In this document: positions 15,065-38,153 of the stretch, piece by piece
Layout of the letters: each line of letters starts with the position of its first letter
Position numbering within the stretch: the first letter of the stretch is position 1
NCBI GenBank assembly: GCA_963846585.1
Contig: CAWJWO010000010.1
Coordinates: 5,163-69,162 of the forward strand
Direction: 5' to 3'
Source: an uncultured Bacteroidota bacterium
GTDB taxonomy: Bacteria > Bacteroidota > Bacteroidia > Bacteroidales > JAAUTT01
DNA: 64,000 bases
Position numbers and translations under genes: made by a program
The notes under the pieces: generated by a model
The model's database searches: none
The model's input: only the letters and a program-made list of their open reading frames with translations
What the model was told of the DNA's origin: nothing

Positions 15065-15100
15065 TATTACTTCTCTCTCTTATATAACTAGTTACTCAAT

Positions 15101-15132: not shown

Positions 15133-15281
15133 AAAGGTACATGAGACTGATGAATTTAAAAAAGTTGAATAATAATAAATATAGGGCCAGGAGCTATATT
15201 TTAGGTACAATGTTTTTGAGATTTCATATTAGCGATACACAAATTGCCAATTATTTTACTAATTAAACCAACACCTCTTAA

Positions 15282-15312
15282 GTCTTGGTTCCTGGCTCTT
15301 GGCTCCTGGTTC
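15282..15312 (-). repeat. CCAGGAACCAAGA-family repeat, inverted copy
   Basis: The reverse complement, GAACCAGGAGCCAAGAGCCAGGAACCAAGAC, matches 13848-13878 at 30 of 31 positions. Confidence 0.9.
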
Positions 15313-15326
15313 TCTTTTTTCTTCTT

Positions 15327-16007
15327 TTACTCCGTAATAGAATTCAGTACCGAATACGACTGCAGCTTGTTGTTACTGTCATACGACTCCGACCGGACAA
15401 TGCCTGCCTGTTTGGAAACAAATTCAACCCCTTTGGAGTGAATATTGACAATCGATTGAGTTTCGAGGTCATATGTGATTTTTGCACATTGAAACGTACC
15501 AGCGGGGGTGGTGACATTTTCAATATCAACAACTTTACGGTTAATTATTTTAGTGGTAGTTTTCATAAGAGTTAAACCTTGATTAGAAACGGTCATTCTT
15601 ATTTCTCCGTTATTAAGCTGCTGCCCTGGCTGAAGATCAGACGGCAGTGTCATTTCATCGGTTTGAATGTCAACTTTCATATTTTTGTATGCACTAAGGT
15701 TCATGTTACTTGTAAACGAACTCATGTCCATTACAAATTCACCATTTTTACATTTAACTTCATATTCTCCCGAATTTAATGATTTGCCCTGATCATTTAT
15801 AAACTCACTTGAAAATTTAATACTGCTTCCCGTTGCTTCTAATATTTTTGTTTTCGAAGTTCCTGACAACTTGTTTGGTGCCTTGTAATGATTAATTATC
15901 AAAATAGTACCAGGCTTTTGAGGGAAATAAAATGTACAATCCTGCGACTTAATGTTGTTGATTCCAAAAATTAGCGCGATAATGGTAAGTGTTAATAGTT
16001 TTTTCAT
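15327..16007 (-). CDS. Hypothetical secreted protein
   Basis: Signal peptide MKKLLTLTIIALIFGINNIKSQ. Beta-rich sequence, no family recognised. Confidence 0.6.
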   Translation of the reverse strand: MKKLLTLTIIALIFGINNIKSQDCTFYFPQKPGTILIINHYKAPNKLSGTSKTKILEATGSSIKFSSEFINDQGKSLNSGEYEVKCKNGEFVMDMSSFTSNMNLSAYKNMKVDIQTDEMTLPSDLQPGQQLNNGEIRMTVSNQGLTLMKTTTKIINRKVVDIENVTTPAGTFQCAKITYDLETQSIVNIHSKGVEFVSKQAGIVRSESYDSNNKLQSYSVLNSITE

Positions 16008-19088: not shown

Positions 19089-19949
19089 ATGAATATAACA
19101 AGCCTTGAATTAGACCTTTTTTTAAATGCATTGCGTAATTATTCCAACTATGATTTCAGGGAATATTCTGATAAATCCTTAAAAAGGAGGCTGGCAAAAG
19201 TCTTGACAGATTATAAACTGGAAATTCAGGCACTTATTTTACAGATGAGGTCAGATCCTCTATTTATCGAAAAAGTTGTAAAAGATATTACGGTTAATAC
19301 TACCGAGTTATTCCGTGAACCGCATATCTGGCAACATGTAAAATATATATTACTTCCAAAATGGGAAAATCAACAGAATATTAATATATGGCATGCAGGT
19401 TGTTCATATGGGCAGGAGGTATATTCCATGCTGATGATTATTAATGAATTAGGCATGCTTGATAAAGTCAGGTTATATGGAACTGACCTGAATACAGATG
19501 TAATTTCTTATGCAAAAAAAGGAATTTACAGGTACAGGTTTAATATTTCTTATTTGGATAATTTTGATAAAGCACTTAAAGAAAATCCTTTTAATTATGA
19601 TGAATATTTTGATATACCATACTCGAAATACTTTGAAATTAATAATGAAAAAGATTTTATTAAAATGAATCCTTTCCTGGTGGATAAACCAATTTTTAAA
19701 AAACACGATCTTGTTAAGGATGGCAACATCTTCTATTTAAAATTTGATCTTATTGTTTGCAGAAATGTAATAATTTATTTTAATTATGAACTTCAGAACA
19801 AGGTTTTCGATCTGTTTTATAATAACTTATATGATCATGGTTTTCTTTGGTTAGGTATGCATGAATCTATATTAGGACCTTTTGCTGCCAAATTTGAAAA
19901 GTTTGGTCATTTTTACCAAAAAAAAGATAGTATATTTTTTTCTAAATAG
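19089..19949 (+). CDS. cheR: CheR-type protein-glutamate O-methyltransferase
   Basis: TELFREP, then the SAM-binding loop NIWHAGCSYGQEVYS, then YGTDLNTDVISYAKKGIY and IVCRNVIIYF. These are the canonical CheR motifs. Confidence 0.85.
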   Translation: MNITSLELDLFLNALRNYSNYDFREYSDKSLKRRLAKVLTDYKLEIQALILQMRSDPLFIEKVVKDITVNTTELFREPHIWQHVKYILLPKWENQQNINIWHAGCSYGQEVYSMLMIINELGMLDKVRLYGTDLNTDVISYAKKGIYRYRFNISYLDNFDKALKENPFNYDEYFDIPYSKYFEINNEKDFIKMNPFLVDKPIFKKHDLVKDGNIFYLKFDLIVCRNVIIYFNYELQNKVFDLFYNNLYDHGFLWLGMHESILGPFAAKFEKFGHFYQKKDSIFFSK

Positions 19950-19989
19950 AATCAATTAAAATGAATATATTTATTAAATGCTATTTTAA

Positions 19990-22683
19990 GTGATGACATT
20001 AATAAATCAAAATATAAAACCGAAACTAAATATTATTATAGGCTCGGTAATTCTTTTACTTCTGTTGATTTTAATAATCCAGTATAATAATTACTATTAT
20101 ACCCGAAAAGCTTTGGTTATTAGTGAACAGATAAACAAAACACAGATATTGCCGGAACAGGTTACCAACCTGCTTAATCAATTTAAAAACAGTGATCTTT
20201 TAAATGACAGGATTTTATCAGGCAATAAAATTTCTTCCCTTGACTCAATAAATATTCTCCTATCCAAATATTGTTTAGTTATCGATAGTTTGTTAAAATC
20301 AAACGATTTATCGCTTAAAAATAAAACAAAAGCAAAATTTAAAAGTATTATTGAAGATTGCAATAGTTTAAAGTCTAAGGACATACAATTAAAAGAAGAA
20401 ATATTGCAGCGTGGGCTATATTATTCAGGTAAATCAGGTGAATGGCAAAGATTTGGGAATTATTTGCAGGAACTTAGTTTTGCTATTCAAAATCCTGAAT
20501 TAATCAGGGAGATATCTTCCGTTACCAGGCAACAGCTGGAGTATCAGGTGACAAAATCAAGCAAGCAAATTGCTGTTATACTTGATCATATAGATGCTTT
20601 AAAAATTTCCCTAAATTCTAAAAAATCAGTTATAGTAAAGGGAATGGATGAAACATTCCGTCTGAAGTTTATAAATGAACTGGAATCTTTTTCAGTATTA
20701 ACACAATCTTTGTATAAATTTGACACAAGACTTGGAATCTGTGGTTCGGAAGGCCTGTTGGGAGAAGTAAATTTTCAGGCAGGATTAATCCGTGATAAAT
20801 CCAAAGAAGGATACATACTGATAAATAAAAATATCAACCAGGCGTTCTTAAATTCATTGATAATTAAAATATTTATAATTATCGTATTAGCAGTTTTATA
20901 CTTCATATTCCTTTACAAATTTTCCAGTTTAATAATTATATCTGTAAAACGAATTAAAGCATTTACAGCTGAACTGGTGCAGGGAAAGCTTCCTTCAACC
21001 ATTAAACTGACTGGCAGTGCCGAGTTATCAGAGATAGGGGAATTATTAAACAATTTTATTGTCAGTTTAAATGAGAAGATAAGGTTTGCTGCGAACATTG
21101 GAACCGGAAATCAAGCAGTAAACATGGTGCCGTTAAGTGAAGATGACACTTTAGCCAATGCTTTGCTAAACATGGAAAAAAGTCTGAATAAAGCTGCCGA
21201 AGAGGATGAAAAGTATAAGATTGAAGAACAGAAAAGGGCCTGGTCGAACGAAGGATTAGCTAAATTCAGCGAGATACTTAGAATGCAAACCAATGACCTG
21301 ACTATACTTTCCGATGAAATCATTTCACATTTGGTAAGGTATGTAGGTGCAAATCAGGGTGGGATATTTTTGTACAATGATGAAGACTTATCCAATATTC
21401 AATTAGATCTTATTTCAGCATTTGCATACGATCGTAAAAAATTTCTTAAAAAAAGAATTAAAATTGGTGAAGGACTTGCCGGTACATGTGCACAGGAAAA
21501 ACAAACAATTTTCCTGACAGATATTCCTGACAATTATTTTGAAATTGCTTCAGGACTGGGAGATGCTGCCCCGAGGAGCCTGTTATTGGTTCCTATGAAG
21601 ACTCAGGAAGCTATATTTGGTATCATAGAATTGGCTTCATTTAATGTTTTTAAGAATCACGAAATTGAGTTTGTAGAGAAAATAGCCCAAAGTACTGCAT
21701 CAACATTTGCTTCGGTAAAAATTAATATAAATACGACACGTTTACTGGAACAATCTAAGAAACAAGCCGAAGAAATGGTTCAGCAGGAAGAGGAAATGCG
21801 CCAAAACCTGGAAGAACTGCAATCAACTCAGGAAGAATCAGCCCGCAGGGAAGCAGAAATTAATAGCTTAATACATGCCGTAGATATTTCTTCCCTGGTA
21901 GTACAATGCGATGTTGATGGAAGAATTATTGAGATTAATAAGAAATTTGCCACTATGCTGAATTTCAGCCGTGATGAATTGATTAACAGGACTTTAAAAA
22001 GCATTTTTTCTTTTGACCATGAAAACGAAGAATTTTATAACCTTCTTAAATCGCTTAAACAGGGTAATAGCGTAGTAAGAAATGAGCAGATAAATCATTT
22101 GAATGGGACGGTTGATTTTTATCTTGTACATTATTCCCCAATTCTTGATAATGAAGGTAAACCATATAAGGTACTTGGAATTGCTTCAAATATAACTGAT
22201 ACAAAGAATTTAGAAACAAATCTGCATAATAAGCAAGAAATACTTTCAACAACCGAGTTTAATTTCAAACAATATAAAAGTTTAGTTAATAGTGGCTTTA
22301 TAAATTGCGAACTAAGCCCGATTGGAGAAATACTGGAAGTAAACGATAATTACATCGAAGCTTTGGGATACCACCGGCACGAATTGATAGGTAAAGATTA
22401 CAGGATATTCCTTCAACCTGATGAATCCAAGCAATTCGAATTAATCTGGATGGAGGTCCATAAAGATAAAACTTATCATGGAGTAATAAAACGTACAAGG
22501 CCAACAGGCGATCAAATTTGGCTAATAGCAAGTTATGTGCCTTTTAAAGATGATCAGGGGGTTATTCAAAAAATTCACTTATTTGGAATGGATATTACTG
22601 AAAAGAAACTTAAATATCAGGTTTTAGAAGATGCTAATAATGAAATAGAACGTCTTAAAAAAATGATAAGTAACCAACTTTGA
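19990..22683 (+). CDS. Membrane sensor: two TM helices, HAMP-like linker, GAF, Glu-rich coiled coil, two PAS domains, no recognisable output domain
   Basis: TM helices near aa 15-35 and 285-315. GAF region LVRYVGANQGGIFLY...IGEGLAGTCAQEKQTIFLTDIPDNYFEIASGLGDAAPRSLLLVPM. Coiled coil EEMVQQEEEMRQNLEELQSTQEE. PAS-like segments end in ASNITDTK and FGMDITEKK. Confidence 0.8.
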   Translation: MMTLINQNIKPKLNIIIGSVILLLLLILIIQYNNYYYTRKALVISEQINKTQILPEQVTNLLNQFKNSDLLNDRILSGNKISSLDSINILLSKYCLVIDSLLKSNDLSLKNKTKAKFKSIIEDCNSLKSKDIQLKEEILQRGLYYSGKSGEWQRFGNYLQELSFAIQNPELIREISSVTRQQLEYQVTKSSKQIAVILDHIDALKISLNSKKSVIVKGMDETFRLKFINELESFSVLTQSLYKFDTRLGICGSEGLLGEVNFQAGLIRDKSKEGYILINKNINQAFLNSLIIKIFIIIVLAVLYFIFLYKFSSLIIISVKRIKAFTAELVQGKLPSTIKLTGSAELSEIGELLNNFIVSLNEKIRFAANIGTGNQAVNMVPLSEDDTLANALLNMEKSLNKAAEEDEKYKIEEQKRAWSNEGLAKFSEILRMQTNDLTILSDEIISHLVRYVGANQGGIFLYNDEDLSNIQLDLISAFAYDRKKFLKKRIKIGEGLAGTCAQEKQTIFLTDIPDNYFEIASGLGDAAPRSLLLVPMKTQEAIFGIIELASFNVFKNHEIEFVEKIAQSTASTFASVKININTTRLLEQSKKQAEEMVQQEEEMRQNLEELQSTQEESARREAEINSLIHAVDISSLVVQCDVDGRIIEINKKFATMLNFSRDELINRTLKSIFSFDHENEEFYNLLKSLKQGNSVVRNEQINHLNGTVDFYLVHYSPILDNEGKPYKVLGIASNITDTKNLETNLHNKQEILSTTEFNFKQYKSLVNSGFINCELSPIGEILEVNDNYIEALGYHRHELIGKDYRIFLQPDESKQFELIWMEVHKDKTYHGVIKRTRPTGDQIWLIASYVPFKDDQGVIQKIHLFGMDITEKKLKYQVLEDANNEIERLKKMISNQL

Positions 22684-22698
22684 AAATTTTTAATCGAT

Positions 22699-23520
22699 AT
22701 GATTGAAATTGGAATAGTCGAAACACGCAATATCATTAGAGTAATAGCAGATACATATAACTATGACTTTAACGATTATGCATTGACTTCCTTTAAACAG
22801 CGGTTAGAAAGGATCATTGAGCAACATAATATTAAATTGGTTGATATTTTTTTAGAAAGGCTCGTAAAAGATAAAAAGTTTTTTGAATTTGTAATTAATA
22901 ATATTGAAGTTCCTTCCACAGAGATGTTTCGCGATCCGTCTATCTGGAGAATTATCCGTGACGAACTGTTGCCCTCCTTAATGAATGAGGCCAATAATGA
23001 AATAAAAGTATGGCTTCCAAATTCTGTGTCCGGTGATGAGCTTTTCTCATTTTGTATTGTATTGCGCGAAATGGGGATTCTCGATAAAGTTCAAATATTT
23101 GTGTCAGCTTTGAGCAGTAGTAGTATTGATACAATAAAATCAGGCTTATTAATGAGCAATAAAATTGAGATCAGTAACGATAACTATATCAGATTTAATG
23201 GTAAAAATCATCTTTCTGATTATTATTCAATTATAGATGGTGAAGCAATTCGTGATCTTTCTTTAATAAAAAATGTTACATTTTTTAAGCAGGATGTTTC
23301 TTTAAATCCTGTTCCACAGGGTATTAAATTAATTCTATTTCGTAATAAGATGATTTATTTCAATCAAACGCTGCAAAGCAAGATTGTGAAAATGTTATAT
23401 AATAATTTACAAGCTAACGGTATCTTAATTATTGGTGTAAAGGAAACGCTCAGCAATTTGTTCGGTTCTCATGAATTTTCATTGATTTATAGTTCGGAAA
23501 GCATTTATAAACATAAATGA
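22699..23520 (+). CDS. CheR-like methyltransferase paralogue with divergent SAM-binding motifs
   Basis: CheR fold motifs TEMFRDPSIW and ILFRNKMIYF are present. However, the glycine loop reads VWLPNSVSGDELFS (canonical IWSAGCSTGEE) and the acidic TD motif reads VSALSS. Confidence 0.75.
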   Translation: MIEIGIVETRNIIRVIADTYNYDFNDYALTSFKQRLERIIEQHNIKLVDIFLERLVKDKKFFEFVINNIEVPSTEMFRDPSIWRIIRDELLPSLMNEANNEIKVWLPNSVSGDELFSFCIVLREMGILDKVQIFVSALSSSSIDTIKSGLLMSNKIEISNDNYIRFNGKNHLSDYYSIIDGEAIRDLSLIKNVTFFKQDVSLNPVPQGIKLILFRNKMIYFNQTLQSKIVKMLYNNLQANGILIIGVKETLSNLFGSHEFSLIYSSESIYKHK

Positions 23521-24077
23521 AAATGTACAAAGCAATTGTTATAGGTGGATCTGCAGGAAGCTTTCAGATAGTAACCAGAATACTAAGTGTATTGCCTGAT
23601 ACATTAAATATGCCTGTTTTCCTGAGTTTACACAGGTTAAAACATATTAGATCAGGCTTTCTGGAAGCACTTTCTTTAAGATCTAATCTTCCTATAATTG
23701 AACCGGACGATAAAGAACAAATAAAATCCGGAATAGCTTATCTGGCTCCTGCTAATTATCATATGTATATAGAGCTGGGTAACAGAATTGCCCTTTCAAC
23801 TGAAGATCCTGTGCATCATTCCAGGCCATCCATAGACCTGTCTTTTATTACTGCTTCAAATGTTTACAGGGATAAACTAATAGGGATTATTTTATCAGGA
23901 GCAAATAGTGATGGAGCAGTGGGACTAAAAAAAATTAAAGAAAATAACGGGCTTGCAATTGTACAGGACCCGGATGATTGCCAGGTCAGGACTATGACTG
24001 AAACTTCAATGAAAATAACCAAAGTTGATCACGTTTTTAAATCAGAAGATATTATTAAATTTCTATTAACATTATAA
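23517..24077 (+). CDS. cheB: CheB-type methylesterase catalytic domain, no receiver domain
   Basis: 186 aa. Contains VIGGSAGSFQ (nucleophile Ser region), a His-containing LSLHRLKH segment, ILSGANSDGAVGLKKIKENNG (Asp region) and VQDP. Its start overlaps the CheR-like stop (ATGA). Confidence 0.8.
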   Translation: MKMYKAIVIGGSAGSFQIVTRILSVLPDTLNMPVFLSLHRLKHIRSGFLEALSLRSNLPIIEPDDKEQIKSGIAYLAPANYHMYIELGNRIALSTEDPVHHSRPSIDLSFITASNVYRDKLIGIILSGANSDGAVGLKKIKENNGLAIVQDPDDCQVRTMTETSMKITKVDHVFKSEDIIKFLLTL

Positions 24078-24083
24078 GCTGAT

Positions 24084-24851
24084 ATGAATTTTAACAACCG
24101 ATACAAAACCTTTAATCTCTTAATTTTTATACTATTTGAATTGATTGTGATATTATTATTTATCACTGTAAACAATGAATTTATTAAGATTGCATCGGGG
24201 CCAAGAGTATTGACAGGATTTATGTTTTTATTAGTTATTTCATTTGGTTTGGTTATGTTTATTCTGGTTGATAAAAAACAAATAATTCCTGTTGAAGGTA
24301 CCGGGAAAATTCTTGAATCGTCAATACCTGAGTCAAAGGATACGGATATTAAAGATATAAAGGAAACAGAGGGGAGATTGGAAGAAAAGGAGATTGATTT
24401 AAGCCGTATTTTACCTCAAGATGCTGTAACAATTGAAAAATATGCCGAAAAACTTTTAATAAACATGGCTGATGAATTTAATATAGTTCAAGCTCTTTTT
24501 TATTATAGAAAGGAAGGAACTGATATTTTTAAATGCAGAGCCCAATATGCCTATTATTCTGACACTAAACCCTCCGATTTTAAAATGGGGGAAACTCTTA
24601 ACGGGCAGGCAATAAAAAATAGAAAAACAGTATCTCTTGCAAAAATACCGGATAACTATTTTACTATTGTTTCAGGATTAGGCAAAGGCATTCCGCGCGA
24701 GATAGTTTTTTTGCCTGTTATCTTTGAAGATAATGTAATTGGGTTAATTGAATATGCAACGTTTTCCACATTTGATTTCAAAACAGAAAGAGATCTTAAC
24801 TTAATAGCTGCAAAAGCCGCGGGAGCCTTAGTACAATTAAATAAAAAGTAA
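24084..24851 (+). CDS. Membrane-anchored stand-alone GAF-domain protein
   Basis: Two N-terminal TM helices, an acidic linker, then a GAF domain paralogous to those of the two neighbouring sensors (IPDNYFTIVSGLGKGIPREIVFLPV...IGLIEYATFS). Confidence 0.7.
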   Translation: MNFNNRYKTFNLLIFILFELIVILLFITVNNEFIKIASGPRVLTGFMFLLVISFGLVMFILVDKKQIIPVEGTGKILESSIPESKDTDIKDIKETEGRLEEKEIDLSRILPQDAVTIEKYAEKLLINMADEFNIVQALFYYRKEGTDIFKCRAQYAYYSDTKPSDFKMGETLNGQAIKNRKTVSLAKIPDNYFTIVSGLGKGIPREIVFLPVIFEDNVIGLIEYATFSTFDFKTERDLNLIAAKAAGALVQLNKK

Positions 24852-24859
24852 ATCTAATT

Positions 24860-27472
24860 ATGTCAGTAAGGTTGGCAAATATTAAAAAAGAAAATATTCG
24901 TATTATTGTTACAGGTATGGCAATTAGTCTCGTGTTTCCATTATTTTCATGGATACTTGATGCAATTATTTCAGGCCAAACTTTTACGATATCATCAATA
25001 TTGCGGCTCCATTTAATCCATCCGGATATTTTCCTGATCGATATTCTGCCTTTTATAACAGGTATATTTCTGTATTTTATATTATTAAATAAAGAAGAGG
25101 AAAAAAGGAAATTCGAAAATACAATCAATAAATTAAATGACCGCATAAATAGAAATGCTGATTTTGCCAAAAGAATAGGGGAAGGTGATTATACCAGTCC
25201 TTTTGTAACATCAGGTGACGATGATGCCCTTGGAAAATCGTTGCTTCTTATGCGGGATAACCTTTTGCTTAATACACGCAAGGAATCGGAACAAAGTTGG
25301 ATAGCCGCGGGAAAGGAAGTTATATCGAATGTTTTACGAATTCACAATAAGATAGATAATTTAGCTTACGACACTCTGGTAAAATTAATAAATTACATAA
25401 ATGCTTTACAAGGTGCGTTTTATTTGTACGACGAGGATAAGGAAGTACTTACTAATATTGCCACTTATGCTTACAACCGCCAAAAATATATTAATCAGGA
25501 GTTTAAGATCGGACAGGGGTTAATAGGAGAATGTGCATATGAAATGGATCTCATTTACAGGACCGAAGTCCCGGATGACTATATTACAATTACATCAGGT
25601 ATTTTGGGAGAACGTAAACCCAAATCAATTCTTATTGTACCATTGGTTTCAGATGAAAAACTGGAAGGGATAATCGAATTTGCATTTCTTCTCGATGAAC
25701 TCCCTGATTTGACACTTAATTTTATGAAAGAATTAGGTGAAATTATTGCCCGTACAATTTTCAATTTGCGGGTGAATGAAAAAACCGAACGTTTACTTGA
25801 AGAATCCAGGGAAATGACCGCAGAATTGCAGGAAAATGAAGAGCAATTGCGTCAGGGAGCTGAAGAAATGCGAGCCACTCAGGAAGAATTACAAAAATCG
25901 AACGAAAAATTAGGGACACAAATAATTGAAGTTGAAAATGCACAAAAACGTTTGCATTCGCTTTTGGAAAATGCTTCAGAGGTAATATTTATTTACGACG
26001 AAGCCTTAAAACTAAGTTATATAAGTCCGTCTGTTACCAGTATACTGGGATTTACACCTGAGGAAATGATGAAAGGCAAGGATTTCGACCGTTTAACCCG
26101 TAAAGGAGAAACCGAATTACGAAATATGTTCCAGCAATTGTTGGTTAACTCAGTTGATTCTATAACCATCCAATATACATACATGAAAAAGGATGGGCAG
26201 AAAATTTTTCTTGAAACTACCGGCAAAAACTTATTAAATGATTCGGCGATAAACGGAATAATTTTAAATGCTCAGGATATTACGGAACGTAAGCGAGCCG
26301 AAAAGGAAGAAAGGATGAAAAGCAAAATGCAGTCTCTTTCCGAAAATTCTCTCGATATGATCATTCGCCTTAATACCTATGGTATGTTTTTTTATGCAAA
26401 TCCTATAGTTGAAGATTACCTGGGAGTTAAAATTAATGATACTTTGAATAAAACAATTAATGATATTATAATACCAGATGGCTTGCTTGAGTATTTTAAG
26501 AACACAATTGCCGAAATAAAGTCTACGCCTAATAAACGAAATAATCAGATTACAATACCTGTTGTTGCAGGCGATAAAATTCTGGAACGTATCATGAGTA
26601 TTGATGCTATACCGGAATTTAATGAGAACGAACTTGAAACAATACTATTTGTTGGGCACGATATTACTGAAGCTAAACGCATAGAGCTTGAAATTGCTGA
26701 TAAAAACAGGAAAATTGAAGATAGCATAAATTATGCACAACGAATACAATCGGCAATTTTACCGGATAACGACTATATAAGGGAATATCTTCCAAAATCA
26801 TTTATATTTTATAAACCCAGGGATGTGGTCAGTGGCGATTTCCCATGGTTCTTTAAACGTGATGATGTAATATTCATAGCCGTTGTAGATTGTACAGGGC
26901 ATGGTGTTCCGGGGGCTTTGCTTTCGTTTATCGGATATTTTATTTTAAATAATATAGTTGATCATGATCGCGATTACACTGCCGGTGAGGTTTGTGACTT
27001 GTTACACAACGGCGTAAGGGATACTTTAAAACAAAATAAGGAAGATGCCCAGGGAAGAGATGGAATGGATATAGCCCTGGTAAAATATATTCCGAAGAAA
27101 AATGAAATACATTATGCAGGAGCTCACAGGCCTTTATATTATCTTAAAAATGGGGAATTAATTGAGTACAAAGGTGACAGGCAAGCTATAGGCGGAATAC
27201 CGCTTGGAAATAAACCTGAAAAAAATTTTACTGATTATCTGATACCTGTAGATAAGGGCGATAAAATATTTTTCTTCTCGGACGGTTTACCTGACCAATT
27301 GGGTGGCGATGAATTTAAGAAATATTCCCCGGGCAGGATAAGAGAACAGATTACCACAAATGGAAGTTTCTCAATGGACGAATATCACAGTTATTTTGAT
27401 AAGGAATTTTTAAATTGGAAGGGAAACGAAAAACAAATAGATGATGTATTATTAATAGGTATAGAATTTTAA
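24860..27472 (+). CDS. Membrane sensor phosphatase: TM, HAMP-like, GAF, Glu-rich coiled coil, two PAS domains, PP2C/SpoIIE domain
   Basis: GAF region (IGQGLIGECAYEMDLIYRTEVPDDYITITSGILGERKPKSILIVPL). Coiled coil AELQENEEQLRQGAEEMRATQEELQKSNEKL. PAS segments (NAQDITERK, GHDITEAK). SpoIIE motifs YAQRIQSAILP, VSGDFPWF, VVDCTGHGVPGALLS, GRDGMDIALV, FFFSDGLPDQ. Confidence 0.85.
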   Translation: MSVRLANIKKENIRIIVTGMAISLVFPLFSWILDAIISGQTFTISSILRLHLIHPDIFLIDILPFITGIFLYFILLNKEEEKRKFENTINKLNDRINRNADFAKRIGEGDYTSPFVTSGDDDALGKSLLLMRDNLLLNTRKESEQSWIAAGKEVISNVLRIHNKIDNLAYDTLVKLINYINALQGAFYLYDEDKEVLTNIATYAYNRQKYINQEFKIGQGLIGECAYEMDLIYRTEVPDDYITITSGILGERKPKSILIVPLVSDEKLEGIIEFAFLLDELPDLTLNFMKELGEIIARTIFNLRVNEKTERLLEESREMTAELQENEEQLRQGAEEMRATQEELQKSNEKLGTQIIEVENAQKRLHSLLENASEVIFIYDEALKLSYISPSVTSILGFTPEEMMKGKDFDRLTRKGETELRNMFQQLLVNSVDSITIQYTYMKKDGQKIFLETTGKNLLNDSAINGIILNAQDITERKRAEKEERMKSKMQSLSENSLDMIIRLNTYGMFFYANPIVEDYLGVKINDTLNKTINDIIIPDGLLEYFKNTIAEIKSTPNKRNNQITIPVVAGDKILERIMSIDAIPEFNENELETILFVGHDITEAKRIELEIADKNRKIEDSINYAQRIQSAILPDNDYIREYLPKSFIFYKPRDVVSGDFPWFFKRDDVIFIAVVDCTGHGVPGALLSFIGYFILNNIVDHDRDYTAGEVCDLLHNGVRDTLKQNKEDAQGRDGMDIALVKYIPKKNEIHYAGAHRPLYYLKNGELIEYKGDRQAIGGIPLGNKPEKNFTDYLIPVDKGDKIFFFSDGLPDQLGGDEFKKYSPGRIREQITTNGSFSMDEYHSYFDKEFLNWKGNEKQIDDVLLIGIEF

Positions 27473-27502
27473 TTTTACAAAACAATTCAAAACTGATAAA
27501 GT

Positions 27503-28087
27503 ATGGCTACAATCGAAAGAAAAGATGTTAAAGGCTTCCTGGAGTTTGTGTATAGGTTTTATAAATCGATGAAGGAACATGAAATTACTTTGGTATATGA
27601 AGGGGAGATAACCCATCAAATTACGAAGGCTTTTACCTCACTCACTGAATCAAATATGGCAAAGGAAGAGGAATCAAATACCGTTCAAAAGAAAGTTTTT
27701 CATGTAATGGTGGAATGTTTGCAGAATATAAGCAAACATGCCGACGATTTTGGCACTAATGATTATCTGTTTTCAGGCAGAGGAATATTCATGGTAGCTA
27801 AAGGGAAAGATGAATATACTGTTACCACCGGGAATGCAATTGAGAATGATAAAATGCAGGATTTAAAAAATCTTCTGGAACAGGTAAATCAATTAGATAA
27901 GGATGAACTTACTGAATTGTATAAAAAACAAATAAAAGAAGGGCGTCTTTCCGAAAAAGGTGGTGCGGGCCTGGGATTTATTGATATTAAAAGAAAAACA
28001 GGCAAGAACCTGGAGTATCACTTTTTACCTATCAATGATGATGCCTCATTCTTTTTATTAACTTCGACTATTTCAAGAGTTGTTTAA
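27503..28087 (+). CDS. SiaB-like small HATPase-fold protein kinase (partner-switch kinase)
   Basis: 194 aa. Contains ECLQNISKHA (N-box-like) and GGAGLGFIDIKRKTG (G-box-like). It lies between a SpoIIE phosphatase and a DUF1987 gene, as in SiaA-SiaB-SiaC loci. Confidence 0.65.
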   Translation: MATIERKDVKGFLEFVYRFYKSMKEHEITLVYEGEITHQITKAFTSLTESNMAKEEESNTVQKKVFHVMVECLQNISKHADDFGTNDYLFSGRGIFMVAKGKDEYTVTTGNAIENDKMQDLKNLLEQVNQLDKDELTELYKKQIKEGRLSEKGGAGLGFIDIKRKTGKNLEYHFLPINDDASFFLLTSTISRVV

Positions 28088-28107
28088 TATTTATTAAATC
28101 ATATATT

Positions 28108-28485
28108 ATGGAAGTTATCAAAATTTTAGGGACTGATGAAACCCCTGCAGTGTTGCTAGATGCAGCCAACAACATATTTGAAATTTCTGGCCGTTCTTTG
28201 CCTGAAGATGTTAATACTTTTTATGCACCGATAATACTTTGGATGGATAAATATAACCAAACACCCAATCCCAAAACAGTTTTCAATTTTAAATTAGTGT
28301 ATTTCAACACGGCATCTTCAAAGGTTTTGCTTGATATTTTGATGAAGCTGGAGGAATTGCACAAATCAGGTAAAGAAGTATTAGTGCACTGGCATTATTC
28401 AGAAGATGATGAAGATATGAAAGAGGCCGGTGAAGAATATGCCGATATCGTTGATGTTCCTTTTGAACAAATTTCTATCAGATAA
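28108..28485 (+). CDS. DUF1987 / SiaC-like regulatory phosphoprotein
   Basis: 125 aa. TPAVLLDAANNIFEISGRSLPEDVNTFYAPIILWM...FKLVYFNTASSKVLLDIL...VHWHYSEDDEDMKEAGEEY matches my memory of the DUF1987 family. Confidence 0.75.
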   Translation: MEVIKILGTDETPAVLLDAANNIFEISGRSLPEDVNTFYAPIILWMDKYNQTPNPKTVFNFKLVYFNTASSKVLLDILMKLEELHKSGKEVLVHWHYSEDDEDMKEAGEEYADIVDVPFEQISIR

Positions 28486-28494
28486 TCCAATTTT

Positions 28495-31400
28495 ATGAGT
28501 GAAGAAATTCTTAAAGCATTAATGCAACTTTTTGCCATCATTGTAAAACAGGATGAGGGCATGGAGCTTAATGAACGTGAGTACGTTAAGAATTTTCTTA
28601 CTCAGCAGTTGAATGATGAGGCCGTTAATGAATATTTAACTCTTTTCGATGATTTTGCCGGAAATGATAAACCTGAAGATAGCCCGGATGAAAATAACAA
28701 GAAGAGGTTAACTTCTGTAAAAGATTCAGTACGGATTCTTGGAATATGCAAGAAAATTAACAAAACACTTACACAGGAACAAAAAGTTGTTGTGTTGGTT
28801 CGTTTATATGAATTGGTAAACACCGACCGCAAGTTTACCGATCAGCGAATGGCAATAATAAATACTGTTGCAGAGGTGTTTAACTTGTCGAAGCAAGAAT
28901 TTGGAGAAATTGAAAGTTTCGTTGTAAAAAATCAACAGGATGATTTGGATCAGGCGAATATATTGATTATATCCGACGGTCATTTTTCCAATACCCAAAG
29001 TAAAATTATACCAACTGAGAAACTTGAAGGAAACATTTATATTCTCAGAGTACCAAGTGTTGAACTTTATTTTCTCAAATATACAGGGCACGAGGAATTA
29101 TTTTTAAATGGACTCGGAATAAGCAATAAGCATATTTATTTATTTGCAAGTGGCAGTGCAGTTAAAATGCCCAAGGGTAAACCGGTTTATTATAGTGATG
29201 TGGTATCTCATTTTATGGCCGATATCACTTCCAGTAAAATTTCCTATCATGTAAATAATCTGGAATACAGATTTGCGAATGGGAATGTAGGGTTACGGAA
29301 TATTACTTTTTCTGAAGGCCATGGTAAGCTGATAGGTATTATGGGGGCTAGCGGGGCTGGTAAAACCACATTGTTAAATGTACTTTGCGGGACTGAAAAA
29401 CCTTTCAAAGGTGAAGTTTTGATAAATGGTTTTAATTTGCATACTGAAAAGGACAAACTTGAAGGTGTAATAGGTTTGATACCACAGGATGATTTACTTA
29501 TAGAAGAGCTTACTGTATATAATAATCTGTATTATAATGCCAGGCTTTGTTTTAGTGATAAATCGGATGATGAAATAAACAGATTAGTAATAAAAACACT
29601 TTCAAATCTTGGGTTACTTGAAAGGAAAGATTTGAAGGTTGGGTCGCCACTTAACAAGACAATCAGCGGCGGACAACGCAAAAGATTAAATATTGCCCTG
29701 GAATTAATCCGCGAACCTTCAATACTATTCGTTGATGAACCTACATCAGGATTATCATCGCGCGACTCCGAAAATGTGATGGATCTTTTAAGGGAACTTG
29801 CCCTGAAGGGTAAACTAATTTTTGTCGTTATTCATCAACCTTCATCGGAAATATACAAGATGTTCGATAAAATGATAGTACTGGATTCCGGTGGGTATTT
29901 AATATATTATGGAAATCCGGTTGAAGCAGTTATGTATTTCAAACGTATTGATGCACAGATTAACAATGATGTTGGTGAATGCCCTGTATGCGGAAATGTT
30001 AACCCTGAATTAATTTTTAATATTGTTGAAGCCAAAGTAGTTGACGAATTTGGCCGGTACACTGATAAGCGAAAGGTAACTCCAACTAAATGGGAAGAAT
30101 ATTACAATCATAACTTTAATCCGCAAAAACAGTCGTCAATTAATGAACGTCCTCCAAAATCGCTCAATATACCGAATAAATTCAATCAGCTAAAAATATA
30201 TACGCTTCGTGATTTTTTTTCGAAGATAAGCAATACGCAATATATTACCCTAAACCTTCTTGAAGCGCCAATTTTGGGATTGATGCTTTCTTATATTATT
30301 CGTTATATAGCTGACCCTACATCTAAAGTTTATATATTCAGGGAAAACGAAAATATTCCGATTTATATTTTCATGAGCCTTATAGTTGCATTGTTTTTAG
30401 GGCTTATGGTAAGTGCCGAAGAAATTATCCGGGACCGTAAGATACTTAAACGTGAAGCTTTTTTAAATTTAAGCCGGTCGAGTTACCTGTTATCCAAAGT
30501 ATTTCTTTTATTTATAATTAGTGCAATACAATCCTTGTCGTTTGTACTTATAGCCAATACAATACTTGGTATTCACGACATGTATTTTTATTATTGGTTT
30601 GCCCTTTTCTCAACTGCCTCATTTGCCAATATGCTTGGATTGAATATTTCGGCATCATTTAATTCGGCGGTTACTATTTATATTTTGATTCCATTGCTTA
30701 TGATTCCTATGATGGTGTTAAGCGGGGCAATGTTTCATTACGACAAACTGAACCGGACCGTAGGAAGTGTTGATAAAGTACCTGTTATAGCTGATATTAT
30801 GGTTACCAAATGGTCATACGAGGCATTGATGGTACATCAGTTTAAAGATAATAAATTCGAGAGAGTATTCTATAATATTGAAAAACAAGAAAGCAACGCT
30901 GATTTTAAGCAGGTTCATTTAATCCCTGAATTACAGAAACATCTTGATAAATGTCTTGATGAATTTCAGCGGACAGGGAAAATTTTGAAAACTATTGGTG
31001 ATCTTGAACTGTTAAGAAATGAATTTTCAAAAGAGTTAATGGTAAATAAGGAACTTCCTTTTAAAAATGCTGATGGCATTGTTGCTGAAAGGTTTAACCA
31101 AAAAATGGGCAACATTCTACAATCGTTTATTGATAAAATGAAGGAATACTATTCTAATAAATTTCTGGAAGCCAACCAGATGAAAGAGTCTATGATAATG
31201 CACGAATTGAAAAAAGATGAGGTAAGATATAAATTTTATAAAAACACCTATCACAATGAAAGTGTATCTGACGAAGTAAAAAAGGTCTTCGAAAAAAATA
31301 AGATACTTGAATATAACCACGAGTTAGTGCAGCAGGTCGATCCTATTTTTAAAGATCCCACAATAAAAGGATTATGGAGCATCAGGGCACATTTTTATGC

Positions 31401-31566
31401 CCCCCGTAAACCTTTTTTAGGTAAATATTACGATACATACTGGTATAACATGATTGTAGTTTGGATATTTACTTTGCTCTTATATATAGCACTTTACTTT
31501 GATTTATTGAGTAAAATTCTTAACCTGACAGGTAAAATAAAATTCAAAAAGGAATCAACGGAATAA
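28495..31566 (+). CDS. ABCG-like transporter: TerB-like N-terminal domain, unknown beta-rich domain, ABC ATPase, ABC-2 permease
   Basis: N-terminus LMQLFAIIVKQDEGMELNEREYVKNFL is TerB-like. Walker A GASGAGKTT, signature SGGQRKRLNIALEL, Walker B LFVDEPTSGLS, then six TM helices. Starts 9 nt after the SiaC-like stop. Confidence 0.85.
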   Translation: MSEEILKALMQLFAIIVKQDEGMELNEREYVKNFLTQQLNDEAVNEYLTLFDDFAGNDKPEDSPDENNKKRLTSVKDSVRILGICKKINKTLTQEQKVVVLVRLYELVNTDRKFTDQRMAIINTVAEVFNLSKQEFGEIESFVVKNQQDDLDQANILIISDGHFSNTQSKIIPTEKLEGNIYILRVPSVELYFLKYTGHEELFLNGLGISNKHIYLFASGSAVKMPKGKPVYYSDVVSHFMADITSSKISYHVNNLEYRFANGNVGLRNITFSEGHGKLIGIMGASGAGKTTLLNVLCGTEKPFKGEVLINGFNLHTEKDKLEGVIGLIPQDDLLIEELTVYNNLYYNARLCFSDKSDDEINRLVIKTLSNLGLLERKDLKVGSPLNKTISGGQRKRLNIALELIREPSILFVDEPTSGLSSRDSENVMDLLRELALKGKLIFVVIHQPSSEIYKMFDKMIVLDSGGYLIYYGNPVEAVMYFKRIDAQINNDVGECPVCGNVNPELIFNIVEAKVVDEFGRYTDKRKVTPTKWEEYYNHNFNPQKQSSINERPPKSLNIPNKFNQLKIYTLRDFFSKISNTQYITLNLLEAPILGLMLSYIIRYIADPTSKVYIFRENENIPIYIFMSLIVALFLGLMVSAEEIIRDRKILKREAFLNLSRSSYLLSKVFLLFIISAIQSLSFVLIANTILGIHDMYFYYWFALFSTASFANMLGLNISASFNSAVTIYILIPLLMIPMMVLSGAMFHYDKLNRTVGSVDKVPVIADIMVTKWSYEALMVHQFKDNKFERVFYNIEKQESNADFKQVHLIPELQKHLDKCLDEFQRTGKILKTIGDLELLRNEFSKELMVNKELPFKNADGIVAERFNQKMGNILQSFIDKMKEYYSNKFLEANQMKESMIMHELKKDEVRYKFYKNTYHNESVSDEVKKVFEKNKILEYNHELVQQVDPIFKDPTIKGLWSIRAHFYAPRKPFLGKYYDTYWYNMIVVWIFTLLLYIALYFDLLSKILNLTGKIKFKKESTE

Positions 31567-31650: not shown

Positions 31651-32550
31651 ATGATAAAGAAATTAGTTTATTTATTTATTGGAGTTGTGTTAGTAACATC
31701 ATGCAGATCAGGAGGTAAACAAGCAGGAGGCGAATTTGGTGCTTCAGATTCAGCAGTTTCTTCATCCGGCCTAAAGGTGGATGAAAAATCTATGGAGAAT
31801 CTGGTGCAGAATATTTCTTCACCTGTAGAAATGGCAGCCCTGATAAAAAGTATGGGAACTCCGTTTTCTCAAAAGTATCTGGCATCCACGGGTGGAATTG
31901 ATAATTATAATACAAGCTTTTCAAAGGCATTTAACCTTGGTATTTTTGGGGCCGATTTAGGTTATTTGAATATGTATCAAAAAACTTCTTCAGTACTTTC
32001 CTATATAACTGCTATAAAAACTCTGGCAGAAGGAATTAATGTCGGACAATTTTTCGATTTTGTTACATTAAAACGCCTTGCCACCAATAATGAGAATATT
32101 GATTCGTTAATGTATATATCAATCCATAGTTTTAATGTAATGGATGAGTACCTTCGTAAAAATAACCGCAGTAATCTGAGTGCTTTAATGGTTGCCGGGG
32201 TTTATGTTGAAGGCCTTTACCTTACAACACAGGTATGTAAAGAAAAACCTGATAAAAAATTAGCAGATAATATCGGGGAACAAAAAACTATTTTTAATGA
32301 ATTGATATTAATTCTGAAGAACTATCAGAAAGAACCTTATTTTACTAATCTGATTACTAATTTGGAAAGCTTAAAAAAGGAATATGATCAGGTAAAAATA
32401 ACTATTGAAGTTGGACAACCTAAAACAATTGAAAAAAACGGTATTCTTACTATCGTTCAAAATTCTAAAAGCAATGTTGAAATGAGTCCGGAGCTGCTCA
32501 ACAGTATCATTAAAACAACTGAAACTATTAGAAATATACTGATTAAATAA
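31651..32550 (+). CDS. Hypothetical lipoprotein
   Basis: Lipobox LVTSC after a signal peptide. Helical-looking sequence, no family recognised. Confidence 0.6.
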   Translation: MIKKLVYLFIGVVLVTSCRSGGKQAGGEFGASDSAVSSSGLKVDEKSMENLVQNISSPVEMAALIKSMGTPFSQKYLASTGGIDNYNTSFSKAFNLGIFGADLGYLNMYQKTSSVLSYITAIKTLAEGINVGQFFDFVTLKRLATNNENIDSLMYISIHSFNVMDEYLRKNNRSNLSALMVAGVYVEGLYLTTQVCKEKPDKKLADNIGEQKTIFNELILILKNYQKEPYFTNLITNLESLKKEYDQVKITIEVGQPKTIEKNGILTIVQNSKSNVEMSPELLNSIIKTTETIRNILIK

Positions 32551-32584: not shown

Positions 32585-33028
32585 ATGAAGAATATAAAAT
32601 TATTACTACCAATTGTTTTTTTCTCAATAAGTGCTGTTTCACTTTCACAAACTGAGACTCAGAAAGTTGAAATTTGTTCAGGCATAGCAGGAAAAGATGC
32701 TCAGTATGTGAAAGATTTCTCTATACAATTACAGTCAGCACAGGGAAATGAAAAAGCTCCCATAGCCAAATATTCTATGATCCTTCAGAAGGATACAAAA
32801 TACAGACTTACAATATGTACTGACGATGATTCTCCTGGCAAGGGGTTTGTACAACTTCTTGATACCGGATCGTTACTTGCAAGCAGTTATAATGCCGCAA
32901 CAGGAAAGGAATATAAAGGGTTTGATTTTGATTGTCAAAAAACGGGAGTATATCATATCTTTGTCCAGTTTCAGGAAGGAAAAGCAGGTAAGGCTGTTGT
33001 AATTCTTTCGTTTGTAAAAAAACTGTAA
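32585..33028 (+). CDS. Hypothetical secreted protein
   Basis: Signal peptide and small beta-rich protein. No family recognised. Confidence 0.55.
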   Translation: MKNIKLLLPIVFFSISAVSLSQTETQKVEICSGIAGKDAQYVKDFSIQLQSAQGNEKAPIAKYSMILQKDTKYRLTICTDDDSPGKGFVQLLDTGSLLASSYNAATGKEYKGFDFDCQKTGVYHIFVQFQEGKAGKAVVILSFVKKL

Positions 33029-38093: not shown

Positions 38094-38153
38094 TTATCTT
38101 TAATCCTATAAATCTTAATTTAATCCTAAAAATCCTAATTAAATCCTAATTTA

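Follow-up and report, generated by a model that had tools for sequence, protein, structure and literature searches.

The Wsp system of Pseudomonas uses CheR and CheB homologues to adapt a sensor with a non-motility output, and it keeps the MCP, CheW and CheA-type kinase core. The locus described here, in contrast, has CheR and CheB without any MCP, CheW or CheA-type kinase. Its enzymes belong to the same families as those of canonical chemoreceptor adaptation (E. coli Tar), but it lacks the MCP signalling domain, CheW and CheA, and its CheB has no receiver. A closer relative is known from Bacillus cereus, where RsbK, a sensor with a GAF domain, has its signalling helix methylated by the CheR-like protein RsbM and in turn governs both the PP2C phosphatase RsbY and the partner switch RsbV/RsbW (PMC4574943, PMC12848376; also Chen et al. 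2012, Environ Microbiol 14:2788, cited therein). A second one is the SiaABCD system of Pseudomonas aeruginosa (PMC8457831; PMC7647112), where phosphorylation of SiaC at T68 prevents its binding to the neighbouring SiaD, and the authors have proposed DUF1987 proteins as regulators of adjacent proteins (PMC8457831).

Like RsbK, the sensors of our locus are membrane proteins in which HAMP(-like) and GAF regions are followed by a signalling helix, with a CheR-type methyltransferase gene adjoining, and the pathway likewise includes a PP2C phosphatase and a phosphorylation-based partner switch. However, RsbK, a hybrid histidine kinase, passes phosphate to the separate REC-PP2C protein RsbY, whereas here the PP2C domain is fused to the sensor, without a His-Asp step. 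The switch consists of SiaB and SiaC (DUF6272 and DUF1987) in place of RsbW and RsbV, and the output is probably a transporter and not a sigma factor (sigma-B). A CheB esterase and a degenerate second CheR are also present, while the literature calls RsbM an orphan methyltransferase. As in SiaABCD, genes for PP2C, SiaB and SiaC stand in the same order and a neighbouring gene product is the expected target of the switch protein. Unlike SiaABCD, our locus lacks the diguanylate cyclase SiaD, its phosphatase has gained GAF, signalling-helix and PAS modules, and CheR and CheB, which are absent from the Pseudomonas locus, are present.

The sequence-only reading of this DNA, in which reversible methylation tunes a phosphatase-driven partner switch, had taken such wiring to be uncharacterised. 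This was too strong, since RsbM, RsbK and the PP2C switch of B. cereus already provide a characterised precedent for it (PMC4574943, PMC12848376). The cluster is an undescribed variant of the methylation-controlled sensor design known from B. cereus; what is new is the sensor-fused PP2C domain, the SiaB/SiaC-type switch, the receiver-less CheB, the degenerate second CheR and an ABCG transporter as probable output.

Conserved layout of the locus

In the window (the whole 64,000-nucleotide stretch analysed), the nine open reading frames first noticed were recovered at exactly the same coordinates, all on the + strand. The intergenic distances from CheR1 to the transporter are, in order, 40, 15, -4, 6, 8, 30, 20 and 9 nt, and this spacing suggests that the genes are co-transcribed. 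Pfam and NCBIfam profile searches supported every domain call. Gene order was compared in 80 species-level Bacteroidales genomes from gut and sediment, in which 65 loci were testable for CheR1, CheR2 and sensor 1 and 58 for the genes from TM-GAF onward. The shared order recurs across these genomes: the counts are 64/65 loci for CheR1 and likewise for CheR2, 58/58 for each of the PP2C-bearing sensor 2, SiaB and SiaC, and 57/58 for each of the ABCG transporter, a lipoprotein and a secreted protein, whereas sensor 1 is found in only 46/65. Chance adjacency does not explain so strongly conserved an order. The nine genes of the sequence-only reading stand, but its extent does not: the conserved unit comprises eleven genes, reaching to position 33028, with sensor 1 as an optional member.

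CheR1, CheB, the PP2C domain, SiaB and the ABC nucleotide-binding domain (NBD) all retain their catalytic residues. Together with the domain identities, the conserved gene order and the conservation, specificity and homology of a signalling helix, this leads us to propose, with moderate confidence, that the eleven genes form a signalling-plus-export locus in which a methylation-adapted sensor drives a Ser/Thr partner switch acting on an exporter.

The proposed partner switch and the ABCG exporter

The SiaB-family protein kinase (27503..28087, + strand) scores 171.7 bits with NF038262 (SiaB_fam_kinase; cut-off 85) and 146 bits with DUF6272. Its median identity across the loci is 77% and its GGAGLG lid is invariant. 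The SiaC-family phosphoprotein (DUF1987; 28108..28485, + strand; PF09345, 142.7 bits) carries the stretch Y65-F-N67-T68, which is invariant among orthologues and retains N67 and T68, which serve P. aeruginosa SiaC as contact and phospho-acceptor residues (PMC8457831). SiaB would phosphorylate SiaC at Thr68 and the PP2C domain would take the phosphate off; unphosphorylated SiaC may then bind and modulate a neighbouring protein, here the TerB-ABCG exporter.

The exporter gene (28495..31566, + strand) encodes a fusion of TerB (Pfam, 32.9 bits) with an ABCG-type half-transporter (ABC_tran, ABC2_membrane). Residues 265-752, containing the NBD followed by the TMD, align with human ABCG1 and ABCG2, and a C-terminal extension of ~230 aa ends in a TM helix. 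Walker A, signature and Walker B motifs are invariant. Downstream lie genes for a conserved lipoprotein (31651..32550, + strand) with a signal peptide and an invariant Cys18, and for a secreted beta-sandwich protein (32585..33028, + strand) with a signal peptide and three conserved Cys. The lipoprotein had no Pfam or PDB match; its AF2 model (pLDDT 79), which combines a helical bundle with a small beta-meander, drew no Foldseek match. The AF2 model of the secreted protein (pLDDT 88) gave only generic Foldseek matches to PPC, GOLD and PliG-like folds (E ~1e-4, TM ~0.5). These two proteins and the exporter may cooperate in delivering a hydrophobic or lipid-like substrate to the envelope.

It is possible, though we think it rather unlikely, that sensing and switch operate as proposed while SiaC has a distant target (for instance a transcription factor, a kinase or a cyclase), the ABCG gene and its partners being co-transcribed cargo or the tail of an unrelated operon. 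The sole characterised SiaC target is indeed a diguanylate cyclase (PMC8457831), and 84 nt separate the TerB-ABCG gene from the lipoprotein gene. However, the SiaC and ABCG genes are just 9 nt apart in the window, ABCG lies downstream in all but one of the testable loci, and the nearly invariant TerB domain at the ABCG N-terminus is a plausible docking module. Moreover, in two loci without ABCG (L062, L078) another signalling protein, a hybrid histidine kinase, takes exactly this place directly after SiaC, which fits a swappable output. The ABCG exporter is the probable output of the switch, its link to SiaC being suggested by adjacency and by analogy.

Sensors and the Glu-Glu signalling helix

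The SiaA-like sensor 2 (24860..27472, + strand; GAF, PAS, and SpoIIE with 59 bits) consists of a TM region, a HAMP-like region, GAF, a signalling helix, two PAS domains and a SpoIIE/PP2C phosphatase, and has a median identity of 63% across its loci. With the NCBIfam SiaA model it scores 154 bits (cut-off 700), the match being confined to the PP2C domain. The PP2C motifs SGDF, DCTGHGVPGA, RDGMD, FSDG and DDV vary little or not at all. Sensor 1 (19990..22683, + strand; Pfam GAF and two PAS) is an accessory protein without an output domain. Its two TM segments (predicted at residues 8-35 and 281-320) and a variable extracytoplasmic domain of ~245 aa are followed by a HAMP-like region, GAF, the signalling helix and PAS-PAS. 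The small membrane-anchored TM-GAF protein (24084..24851, + strand; GAF_2 35 bits, TM prediction) has two to three predicted hydrophobic segments and then a GAF domain, without helix or output; its gene is present in 57/58 loci at ~36% identity, and it also occurs in two distant loci, L082 and L087. BLASTP (E-values 2e-44, 3e-18 and 7e-15) bears out the paralogy of the three GAF domains that had been noticed in the sequence. The HAMP-like assignment fared less evenly: the window's own sensors gave no Pfam HAMP match at E <= 0.01, but related sensors of three related loci matched HAMP with 23-29 bits (cut-off 25). We suggest that the membrane-anchored sensor 2 integrates signals via GAF and PAS, and that TM-GAF and the input-variable sensor 1, where present, are probably co-sensors which may associate with it via homologous GAF/helix modules.

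The best-conserved stretch of both large sensors is a helix rich in Glu pairs, located after GAF and before PAS. In sensor 1 its core (21784..21837, + strand; aa 599-616, QEEEMRQN(L/M)EE(L/M)x(A/S)TQEE) has pairs at 601/602, 608/609 and 615/616, and in sensor 2 (25835..25888, + strand; aa 326-343, NEE(E/Q)LRQNAEEMRAT(Q/H)EE) at 328/329, 335/336 and 342/343. Both cores are candidate methyl-accepting sites with seven-residue spacing, near-invariant in 52 and 71 orthologues, respectively. Column conservation in sensor 1 is 0.94 for this core, compared with 0.32 for the whole protein and 0.14 for its extracytoplasmic part. There are two copies of the motif in the window and 119 across the 80 loci, every one of them within a large-sensor gene, and in loci without sensor 1 (two architectures, 16 in the tally) sensor 2 is the only motif-bearing gene nearby. 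The pattern, [EQ][EQ] every seven residues and then x-x-A-T, parallels methylation helix 1 of E. coli Tar, and as in Tar the pairs lie on a coiled coil with one site Glu/Gln polymorphic (sensor 2 position 329: Glu in 43, Gln in 26). However, the helix here is presumably a parallel dimeric linker, while that of chemoreceptors belongs to an antiparallel four-helix bundle.

The same helix follows GAF in a Deinococcus hybrid kinase adjoining CheR and in Rhizobium and Rhizorhabdus hybrid kinases adjoining CheR and a stand-alone CheB. These alphaproteobacterial and Deinococcus cassettes (hybrid kinase, CheR, stand-alone CheB, REC-kinase), for which we found no functional study in the literature, share with our locus the GAF and EE-helix module, the CheR and the receiver-less CheB clade, but their output is a His-Asp phosphorelay without a transporter and not PP2C with SiaB/SiaC. 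The EE helix is apparently the counterpart of what in B. cereus RsbK is called the "methylatable signalling helix", an equivalence that rests on homology shown only against these CheR-linked kinases.

Conservation and specificity of the helix thus give comparative support to the large sensors being CheR/CheB substrates, as the sequence-only reading would require; methylation itself, phosphotransfer and the action of SiaC on the transporter we still infer. The Glu-Glu pairs would be methylated by CheR1 and demethylated by the receiver-less CheB, which could possibly deamidate Gln at position 329. Methylation would reset sensor output, as in chemoreceptors and in RsbK/RsbM, and the state of the helix would set the activity of the fused PP2C domain.

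Less probable still than a distant SiaC target is that two independent modules merely lie side by side, a self-contained methylation-based sensor whose output is unlinked (CheR1 to TM-GAF) and an unmethylated partner-switch exporter (sensor 2 onward). One block is inverted in L061 and L063, with breakpoints exactly between TM-GAF and sensor 2, and Cytophagales have SiaB/SiaC/SpoIIE sets without CheR or CheB. In L087, moreover, the EE motif is confined to an output-less sensor and absent from the PP2C sensor, so that the identity of the methyl acceptor may differ among lineages. However, the two halves remain adjacent after the inversion, CheB, TM-GAF and sensor 2 are contiguous even in the distant L082 and L087, and the near-invariant helix is present in sensor 2 itself, including loci without sensor 1. 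These observations argue against two separate modules. Further chemoreceptor-modifying enzymes accompany such sensors: a CheD gene joins them in L062, and L081 has a CheB-REC-SpoIIE fusion with CheR adjoining. The sensor helix of L082 has lost its EE pairs, and CheR is not nearby. Since EE helices are kept in L062 and L078 with no CheR within the contig, and in an Aureibacter protein of GAF and helix only with no CheR within 9 kb, motif and enzyme are strongly, though not absolutely, linked.

CheR and CheB enzymes

CheR1 (19089..19949, + strand; PF01739, 119 bits) is a canonical CheR-type glutamate methyltransferase. Its CheR_N match (25.9 bits) is slightly below the cut-off of 27; the protein aligns with B. 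subtilis CheR (5FTW), and the motifs AGCS(T/S)GQE, (T/S)D(L/I)N and CRNVIIYF are kept in ~68/72 aligned sequences, the outliers probably being CheR2 cross-hits. CheR2 (22699..23520, + strand; PF01739, 78 bits) is, as first read, a divergent paralogue (31% identity to CheR1) with the CheR fold. It retains TEMFRDP and RN..IY, but its SAM site is degenerate: residues 108-110 of the G-loop are hypervariable, and the post-I Asp position (aa 137) is acidic in 0/76 orthologues. SAM binding has probably been lost, and CheR2 is probably a pseudo-methyltransferase or adaptor. Loss of the SAM-ribose Asp makes a targeting or regulatory subunit more likely than an enzyme, and we assign CheR2 this putative role in the pathway.

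The CheB methylesterase (23517..24077, + strand; PF01339, CheB_methylest, 151 bits) has 186 aa, and its S12, H43 and D132, invariant among orthologues, align to S164, H190 and D286 of E. coli CheB. CheR and CheB are classically MCP-specific, but it is very improbable that they serve here a conventional chemosensory pathway encoded elsewhere (e.g. for gliding) and modify true MCPs, their position reflecting co-regulation only, given that, as the sequence-only reading had held for the cluster, neither the window nor the 80 related loci (~1.4 Mb around the cluster in 80 species) gave any match to MCP, CheW or CheA-type proteins, that this CheB lacks the receiver domain which couples CheB to CheA, that its closest relatives are stand-alone or fused to CheR, a histidine kinase or PP2C and not to an N-terminal receiver, and that the same CheR/CheB pair lies beside helix-bearing kinases in other phyla. 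The nearest representative clusters of this CheB, taken here as the esterase of the large sensors, are nearly all stand-alone proteins of ~190 aa. Its orthologues begin at MYKA, so the real start is probably at 23523, and the ATGA overlap with CheR2, although present as annotated, may be only apparent.

Extent and conservation of the gene cluster

The sequence-only reading had proposed a cluster of nine same-strand genes that joins CheR/CheB enzymes to GAF-PAS sensors, a PP2C phosphatase, a SiaB/SiaC pair and an ABCG-type transporter. All nine ORFs are present on the plus strand of the window at exactly the coordinates claimed, and profile searches (Pfam, NCBIfam) support each of the family assignments. 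CheR1 (19089-19949) and CheR2 (22699-23520) match the CheR SAM domain with 119 and 78 bits, respectively, and each shows a weak CheR_N match. Sensor 1 (19990-22683; 897 aa), which lies between them, consists of a GAF and two PAS domains and lacks an output domain, and CheB (23517-24077; 186 aa) consists of the CheB methylesterase domain alone (151 bits). These are followed by a TM-GAF protein (24084-24851), sensor 2 (24860-27472; 870 aa) with GAF, PAS and SpoIIE/PP2C domains (SpoIIE, 58.9 bits), SiaB (27503-28087; NF038262, 171.7 bits against a cut-off of 85; PF19788 or DUF6272, 146 bits), SiaC (28108-28485; SiaC/DUF1987, PF09345, 142.7 bits) and the transporter (28495-31566), in which TerB, ABC_tran (PF00005) and ABC2_membrane (PF01061) domains are found. 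The three GAF domains are indeed paralogues, with BLASTP E-values of 2e-44, 3e-18 and 7e-15.

The gaps between the nine ORFs are, in order, 40, 15, -4, 6, 8, 30, 20 and 9 nt, and from this spacing we infer that the cluster is co-transcribed. The ATGA overlap reported for CheR2 and CheB is present as annotated (-4 nt). However, CheB orthologues open at the second ATG (MYKA...; window 23517-23525) and therefore the overlap may be unreal, in which case the gap would be 2 nt. Scans for sigma-70 promoters, terminators and the Bacteroidetes-type TTTG...TAnnTTTG element gave counts no higher than in shuffled sequence and do not inform on operon structure, and no RNA family in Rfam matches the window.

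Close relatives of CheB number in the thousands, each of about 185 aa and exclusively from Bacteroidales. From more than 511 relatives obtained in a scan with one genome per species, the best 80 loci were taken and all window proteins were mapped onto them; 58 of these loci have enough downstream and 65 enough upstream sequence for counting. Gene order is kept among these relatives. Sensor 2, SiaB and SiaC are each present in 58/58 loci, while the TM-GAF protein and the transporter are each present in 57/58. The same count (57/58) holds for two further genes located downstream, which encode a lipoprotein (31651-32550) and a secreted protein (32585-33028). CheR1 and CheR2 are each found in 64/65 loci and sensor 1 in 46/65, whereas the upstream LPG-synthase gene is found in 18/65 only. 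The flanks of the cluster are unrelated housekeeping genes (GH1 glycosidase, LPG-synthase-like membrane protein, UbiA and ResB/CcsA). The presence counts thus define an eleven-gene unit with boundaries at 19089 and 33028, in which sensor 1 is optional. The proposed cluster is therefore real and strongly conserved, but it is larger than nine genes by two downstream members and can dispense with sensor 1.

In two Bacteroidales loci (L061 and L063) the genes from sensor 2 through the secreted protein run in the opposite orientation to the CheR1-CheR2-CheB-TM-GAF block, and the two blocks still adjoin. The core persists at greater distance: L082 (CheB 52% identical) contains CheB, the TM-GAF protein, a GAF-PAS-PP2C sensor, DUF6272, SiaC, ABCG and a 296-aa protein, and a CheR gene is absent from this locus. 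In L087 (CheB 43% identical) a large GAF-PAS sensor, CheR, CheB, the TM-GAF protein and a GAF-PAS-PP2C sensor are present. Upstream of the L087 cluster (1558-4593), two protoglobin genes, a Roadblock/LC7 protein and a Ras-like small GTPase are located, which may form another sensory module.

Methylation enzymes and a candidate methyl-accepting helix

Alignment to B. subtilis CheR (5FTW) reveals that CheR1 has kept the canonical motifs. CheR2 (22699-23520), which is 31% identical to CheR1, retains the N-terminal TEMFRDP motif and RN..IY, and its glycine-loop residues are hypervariable. The position of the Asp that binds the SAM ribose is acidic in 0 of 76 CheR2 orthologues (S in 27, V in 11, C in 10, T in 8 and Y in 8). 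These substitutions suggest that CheR2 is conserved yet probably not a methyltransferase. It is possible that this conserved but degenerate protein is a pseudo-methyltransferase partner of CheR1, and it is a candidate for the first such pseudo-enzyme partner of a CheR known to us.

CheB contains no receiver domain in Pfam and has an intact Ser/His/Asp triad. By alignment, its S12, H43 and D132 correspond to S164, H190 and D286 of E. coli CheB, and all three are invariant among orthologues; H39 was considered as the catalytic histidine and rejected, since the alignment to E. coli CheB points to H43. The nearest representative clusters in an exhaustive search are nearly all stand-alone proteins, and the fused relatives found are CheR-CheB, CheB-REC, CheB-REC-kinase and CheB-REC-SpoIIE. 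The last of these, which again joins CheB directly to a PP2C phosphatase, is encoded on a metagenomic contig (L081, 90-2722) just downstream of a CheR gene.

The reported absence of CheA, CheW and chemoreceptors (MCPs) holds for the window and the 80 loci. Pfam domains of these three families are missing from the cluster and flanking proteins scanned, and tblastn with E. coli Tar and CheW gives zero matches in the window or the 80 loci, while a CheA query hits generic HATPase regions only. A candidate substrate for the methylation enzymes is located in the sensors themselves. In sensor 2, the helix linking GAF to PAS shows almost no variation among 71 orthologues (T-E-x-L-L-x-E-S-Q-x-M-T-x-E-L-x-E-N-E-E-(E/Q)-L-R-Q-N-A-E-E-M-R-A-T-(Q/H)-E-E-L). 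Its acidic pairs at 328/329, 335/336 and 342/343 are spaced by exactly seven residues, and position 329 is Glu in 43 and Gln in 26 of the orthologues. Sensor 1 orthologues are otherwise poorly conserved and carry a matching core, Q-E-E-E-M-R-Q-N-M-E-E-(L/M)-x-A-T-Q-E-E, in which column conservation reaches 0.94, compared with 0.32 over the full length of the protein and 0.14 in its extracytoplasmic domain. A pattern for this core, hereafter the EE helix (residues 326-343 of sensor 2 and 599-616 of sensor 1), has two matches in the window and 119 in the six-frame translations of the 80 loci, in every case within the sensor 1 or sensor 2 genes.

Methylation of chemoreceptors follows the consensus Glu-Glu-x-x-Ala-Ser/Thr. 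The sensor helix mirrors the arrangement in the first methylation helix (helix 1) of Tar from E. coli (...EQQASALEETAASMEQLTAT...), a receptor modified at Q295, E302 and Q309. By our own heptad assignment, L323, L330, M337, L344 and L351 of sensor 2 occupy core position 'a', which places the Glu pairs at 'f' and 'g'. Neutralisation of charge at these pairs would be expected to alter the packing of the coiled coil.

A CheR-less variant of the cluster is seen in two Bacteroidales loci, L062 (6903-7466 and 15250-18240) and L078 (9592-12594), where the EE helices are retained and CheR is not found on the contig. Strict covariation of CheR with the motif was therefore rejected as an absolute rule. 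In L082, which is without CheR, the Glu pairs of the sensor helix are lost, and in L087 the EE motif is confined to the output-less sensor. A gene for CheD, the chemoreceptor deamidase, is located upstream of the sensor 1-like gene in L062.

The EE helix is also present outside Bacteroidales. A tblastn search of the GAF-plus-helix segment against annotated plasmids returned 271 records. The match in Deinococcus deserti is a hybrid kinase in which the GAF domain is followed by ...LLRQSQSMAQELQSQQEELRQTNEELEQK..., and the next gene is CheR. The CheB search revealed, in Rhizobium and Rhizorhabdus, cassettes of four genes (hybrid kinase, CheR, stand-alone CheB of 190 aa and REC-kinase), whose kinases carry ...LLHETQRQTEELQVQGEELRVSNEELEEQ.... 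The helix of the cluster sensors is homologous to those of CheR-linked kinases in all three genera. Such plasmid cassettes (L092, 3719-9688; L093, 3720-9688; L090, 4781-12253) are conserved in alphaproteobacteria and Deinococcus, with the stand-alone CheB missing in Deinococcus, and our search found no functional study of them. Plasmid pAT1 of Aureibacter tunicatorum encodes a 464-aa protein (L091, 8278-9669) that ends right after the GAF domain and EE helix. This protein lacks an output domain, and CheR is absent within 9 kb of its gene; the pAT1 record holds four matching places, and several more are found on related Cytophagales plasmids.

A precedent for methylation of such a helix is available from Bacillus cereus, in which the CheR-like protein RsbM methylates the signalling helix of the hybrid kinase RsbK, a protein of CHASE3-HAMP-GAF-S-helix-HK-REC architecture (PMC4574943). 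This methylation represses a pathway that runs from the REC-PP2C phosphatase RsbY through the RsbV/RsbW partner switch to sigma-B, and RsbM is noted to have no paired esterase; 127 RsbK-like kinases are reported in ten phyla (PMC4574943; PMC12848376). Sensors 1 and 2 have a GAF domain followed by a signalling helix rich in heptad-spaced Glu pairs, which, by its homology to the helices of the Deinococcus, Rhizobium and Rhizorhabdus kinases, probably corresponds to the methylated helix of RsbK, and a CheR-type gene adjacent to the sensor (64/65 loci) is common to both systems. However, the output of RsbK is HisKA-HATPase-REC, whereas here sensor 1 is output-less and sensor 2 ends in PP2C.

The putative partner switch, the exporter and the possible output

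The NCBI SiaA model finds its best match in the PP2C part of sensor 2 alone, where it scores 154 bits, far below its equivalog cut-off (700). The metal-binding motifs of this PP2C and the ATP-lid GGAGLG of SiaB are invariant or nearly so, and in SiaC the residues Y65-F-N67-T68 are invariant among 69 sequences, T68 being the predicted phospho-acceptor. In P. aeruginosa, T68 of SiaC slots in between the SiaD stalk helices, and its phosphorylation by SiaB prevents this binding; the authors of that study suggested that DUF1987 proteins regulate adjacent proteins (PMC8457831). Of the SiaABCD system, the SiaB-family kinase and SiaC with Thr68 are present in the window, next to a PP2C domain that may be the equivalent of SiaA. 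However, the output there is the diguanylate cyclase SiaD, while GGDEF is absent from the cluster and flanking genes here. In Cytophagales, SiaB/SiaC pairs occur with SpoIIE phosphatases and without CheR, CheB or ABCG, which indicates that the switch is a portable module with variable outputs.

The gene next to SiaC is that of the transporter, 9 nt away in the window and downstream in 57/58 loci. It has the ABCG-type (type V, ABC-2) layout with the NBD N-terminal to the ABC-2 TMD, and its residues 265-752 align to human ABCG1 and ABCG2 over both the NBD and the membrane domain, with a score against TIGR00955 of 252.7 bits, under the subfamily cut-off of 736. The Walker A, signature and Walker B motifs are invariant, and the N-terminal TerB domain is nearly so. 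The family resemblance suggests, by itself, that the cargo may be lipid-like. In L062 and L078, a PAS-HisKA-HATPase-REC hybrid kinase takes the place of ABCG after SiaC, and the transporter, lipoprotein and secreted protein are all missing.

The lipobox Cys of the lipoprotein is invariant. Pfam gives no match to this protein or to any of 13 orthologues scanned one by one, a PDB profile match is likewise lacking, and its AF2 model (pLDDT 79) has no structural neighbour (best Foldseek E-value 0.85). The secreted protein has a signal peptide and three conserved Cys, and gives no sequence match in Pfam or PDB. Its AF2 model (pLDDT 88) is a beta-sandwich for which Foldseek returns PPC, GOLD, PliG and collagen-binding folds with TM of about 0.5; these matches are too generic and a function drawn from them was rejected.

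The best-supported reading of the locus is the mechanism proposed from the sequence, in which methylation would tune a phosphatase-driven switch, now with a concrete candidate site. The literature searches found no account of this locus. However, B. cereus already provides an established case in which CheR-type methylation tunes a PP2C-driven partner switch. As far as the literature shows, the undescribed features are the sensor-fused PP2C, the SiaB/SiaC switch in this setting, the receiver-less CheB, the pseudo-CheR, and the ABCG exporter with two envelope proteins. We tentatively suggest, as a possibility that we consider rather unlikely, that an adaptation module (CheR, CheB, pseudo-CheR and helix) has been fused directly to a Ser/Thr phosphatase partner switch, and that the switch protein opens or closes an ABCG-type lipid exporter at the post-translational level. 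If so, non-motile anaerobic Bacteroidales would gain a sensor with memory controlling envelope or vesicle composition, and this would be the first reversible receptor methylation that controls a transporter rather than a kinase.

RsbK/RsbM of B. cereus is the only characterised case of receptor methylation outside MCPs, and the locus would extend it in three ways: an esterase is added, so that the modification would be reversible, the phosphatase is fused to the sensor, and the switch is of the SiaB/SiaC type, so far studied only in Pseudomonas. For the orphan CheR/CheB of non-motile Bacteroidota, hitherto without an assigned substrate, a defined helix of 18 residues, present in both sensors and bearing three Glu pairs, is now a candidate. 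The locus offers a complete downstream path amenable to purified components. It also suggests that a bacterial lineage often found in guts, digesters and sediments has a regulated ABCG exporter that is accompanied by two envelope proteins not yet characterised.

Other features of the window

Near the start of the window (1802-2644 and 3161-5481), one ORF encodes a receiver domain and, of a HATPase domain, the C-terminal part alone, and therefore resembles a truncated hybrid kinase. About 500 nt downstream of it are an ORF that weakly matches the integrase core (rve; 27.5 bits, under the cut-off) and another ORF of 251 aa; possibly, an insertion element has here interrupted the hybrid kinase. 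At 13934-15575, a 376-aa ORF with Reg_prop (two-component-regulator propeller) repeats is followed by short overlapping ORFs (14985-15266 and 15285-15575), an arrangement that suggests a hybrid two-component sensor damaged by truncation or a frameshift. Directly downstream of the cluster (34039-40859), a fused ResB/CcsA cytochrome c biogenesis protein (925 aa) is encoded together with a Ni-insertion (LarC-like) protein, an AIR-carboxylase-like (LarB-like) protein and a CbiQ-type transporter component, and this region may be a nickel-pincer cofactor gene set.
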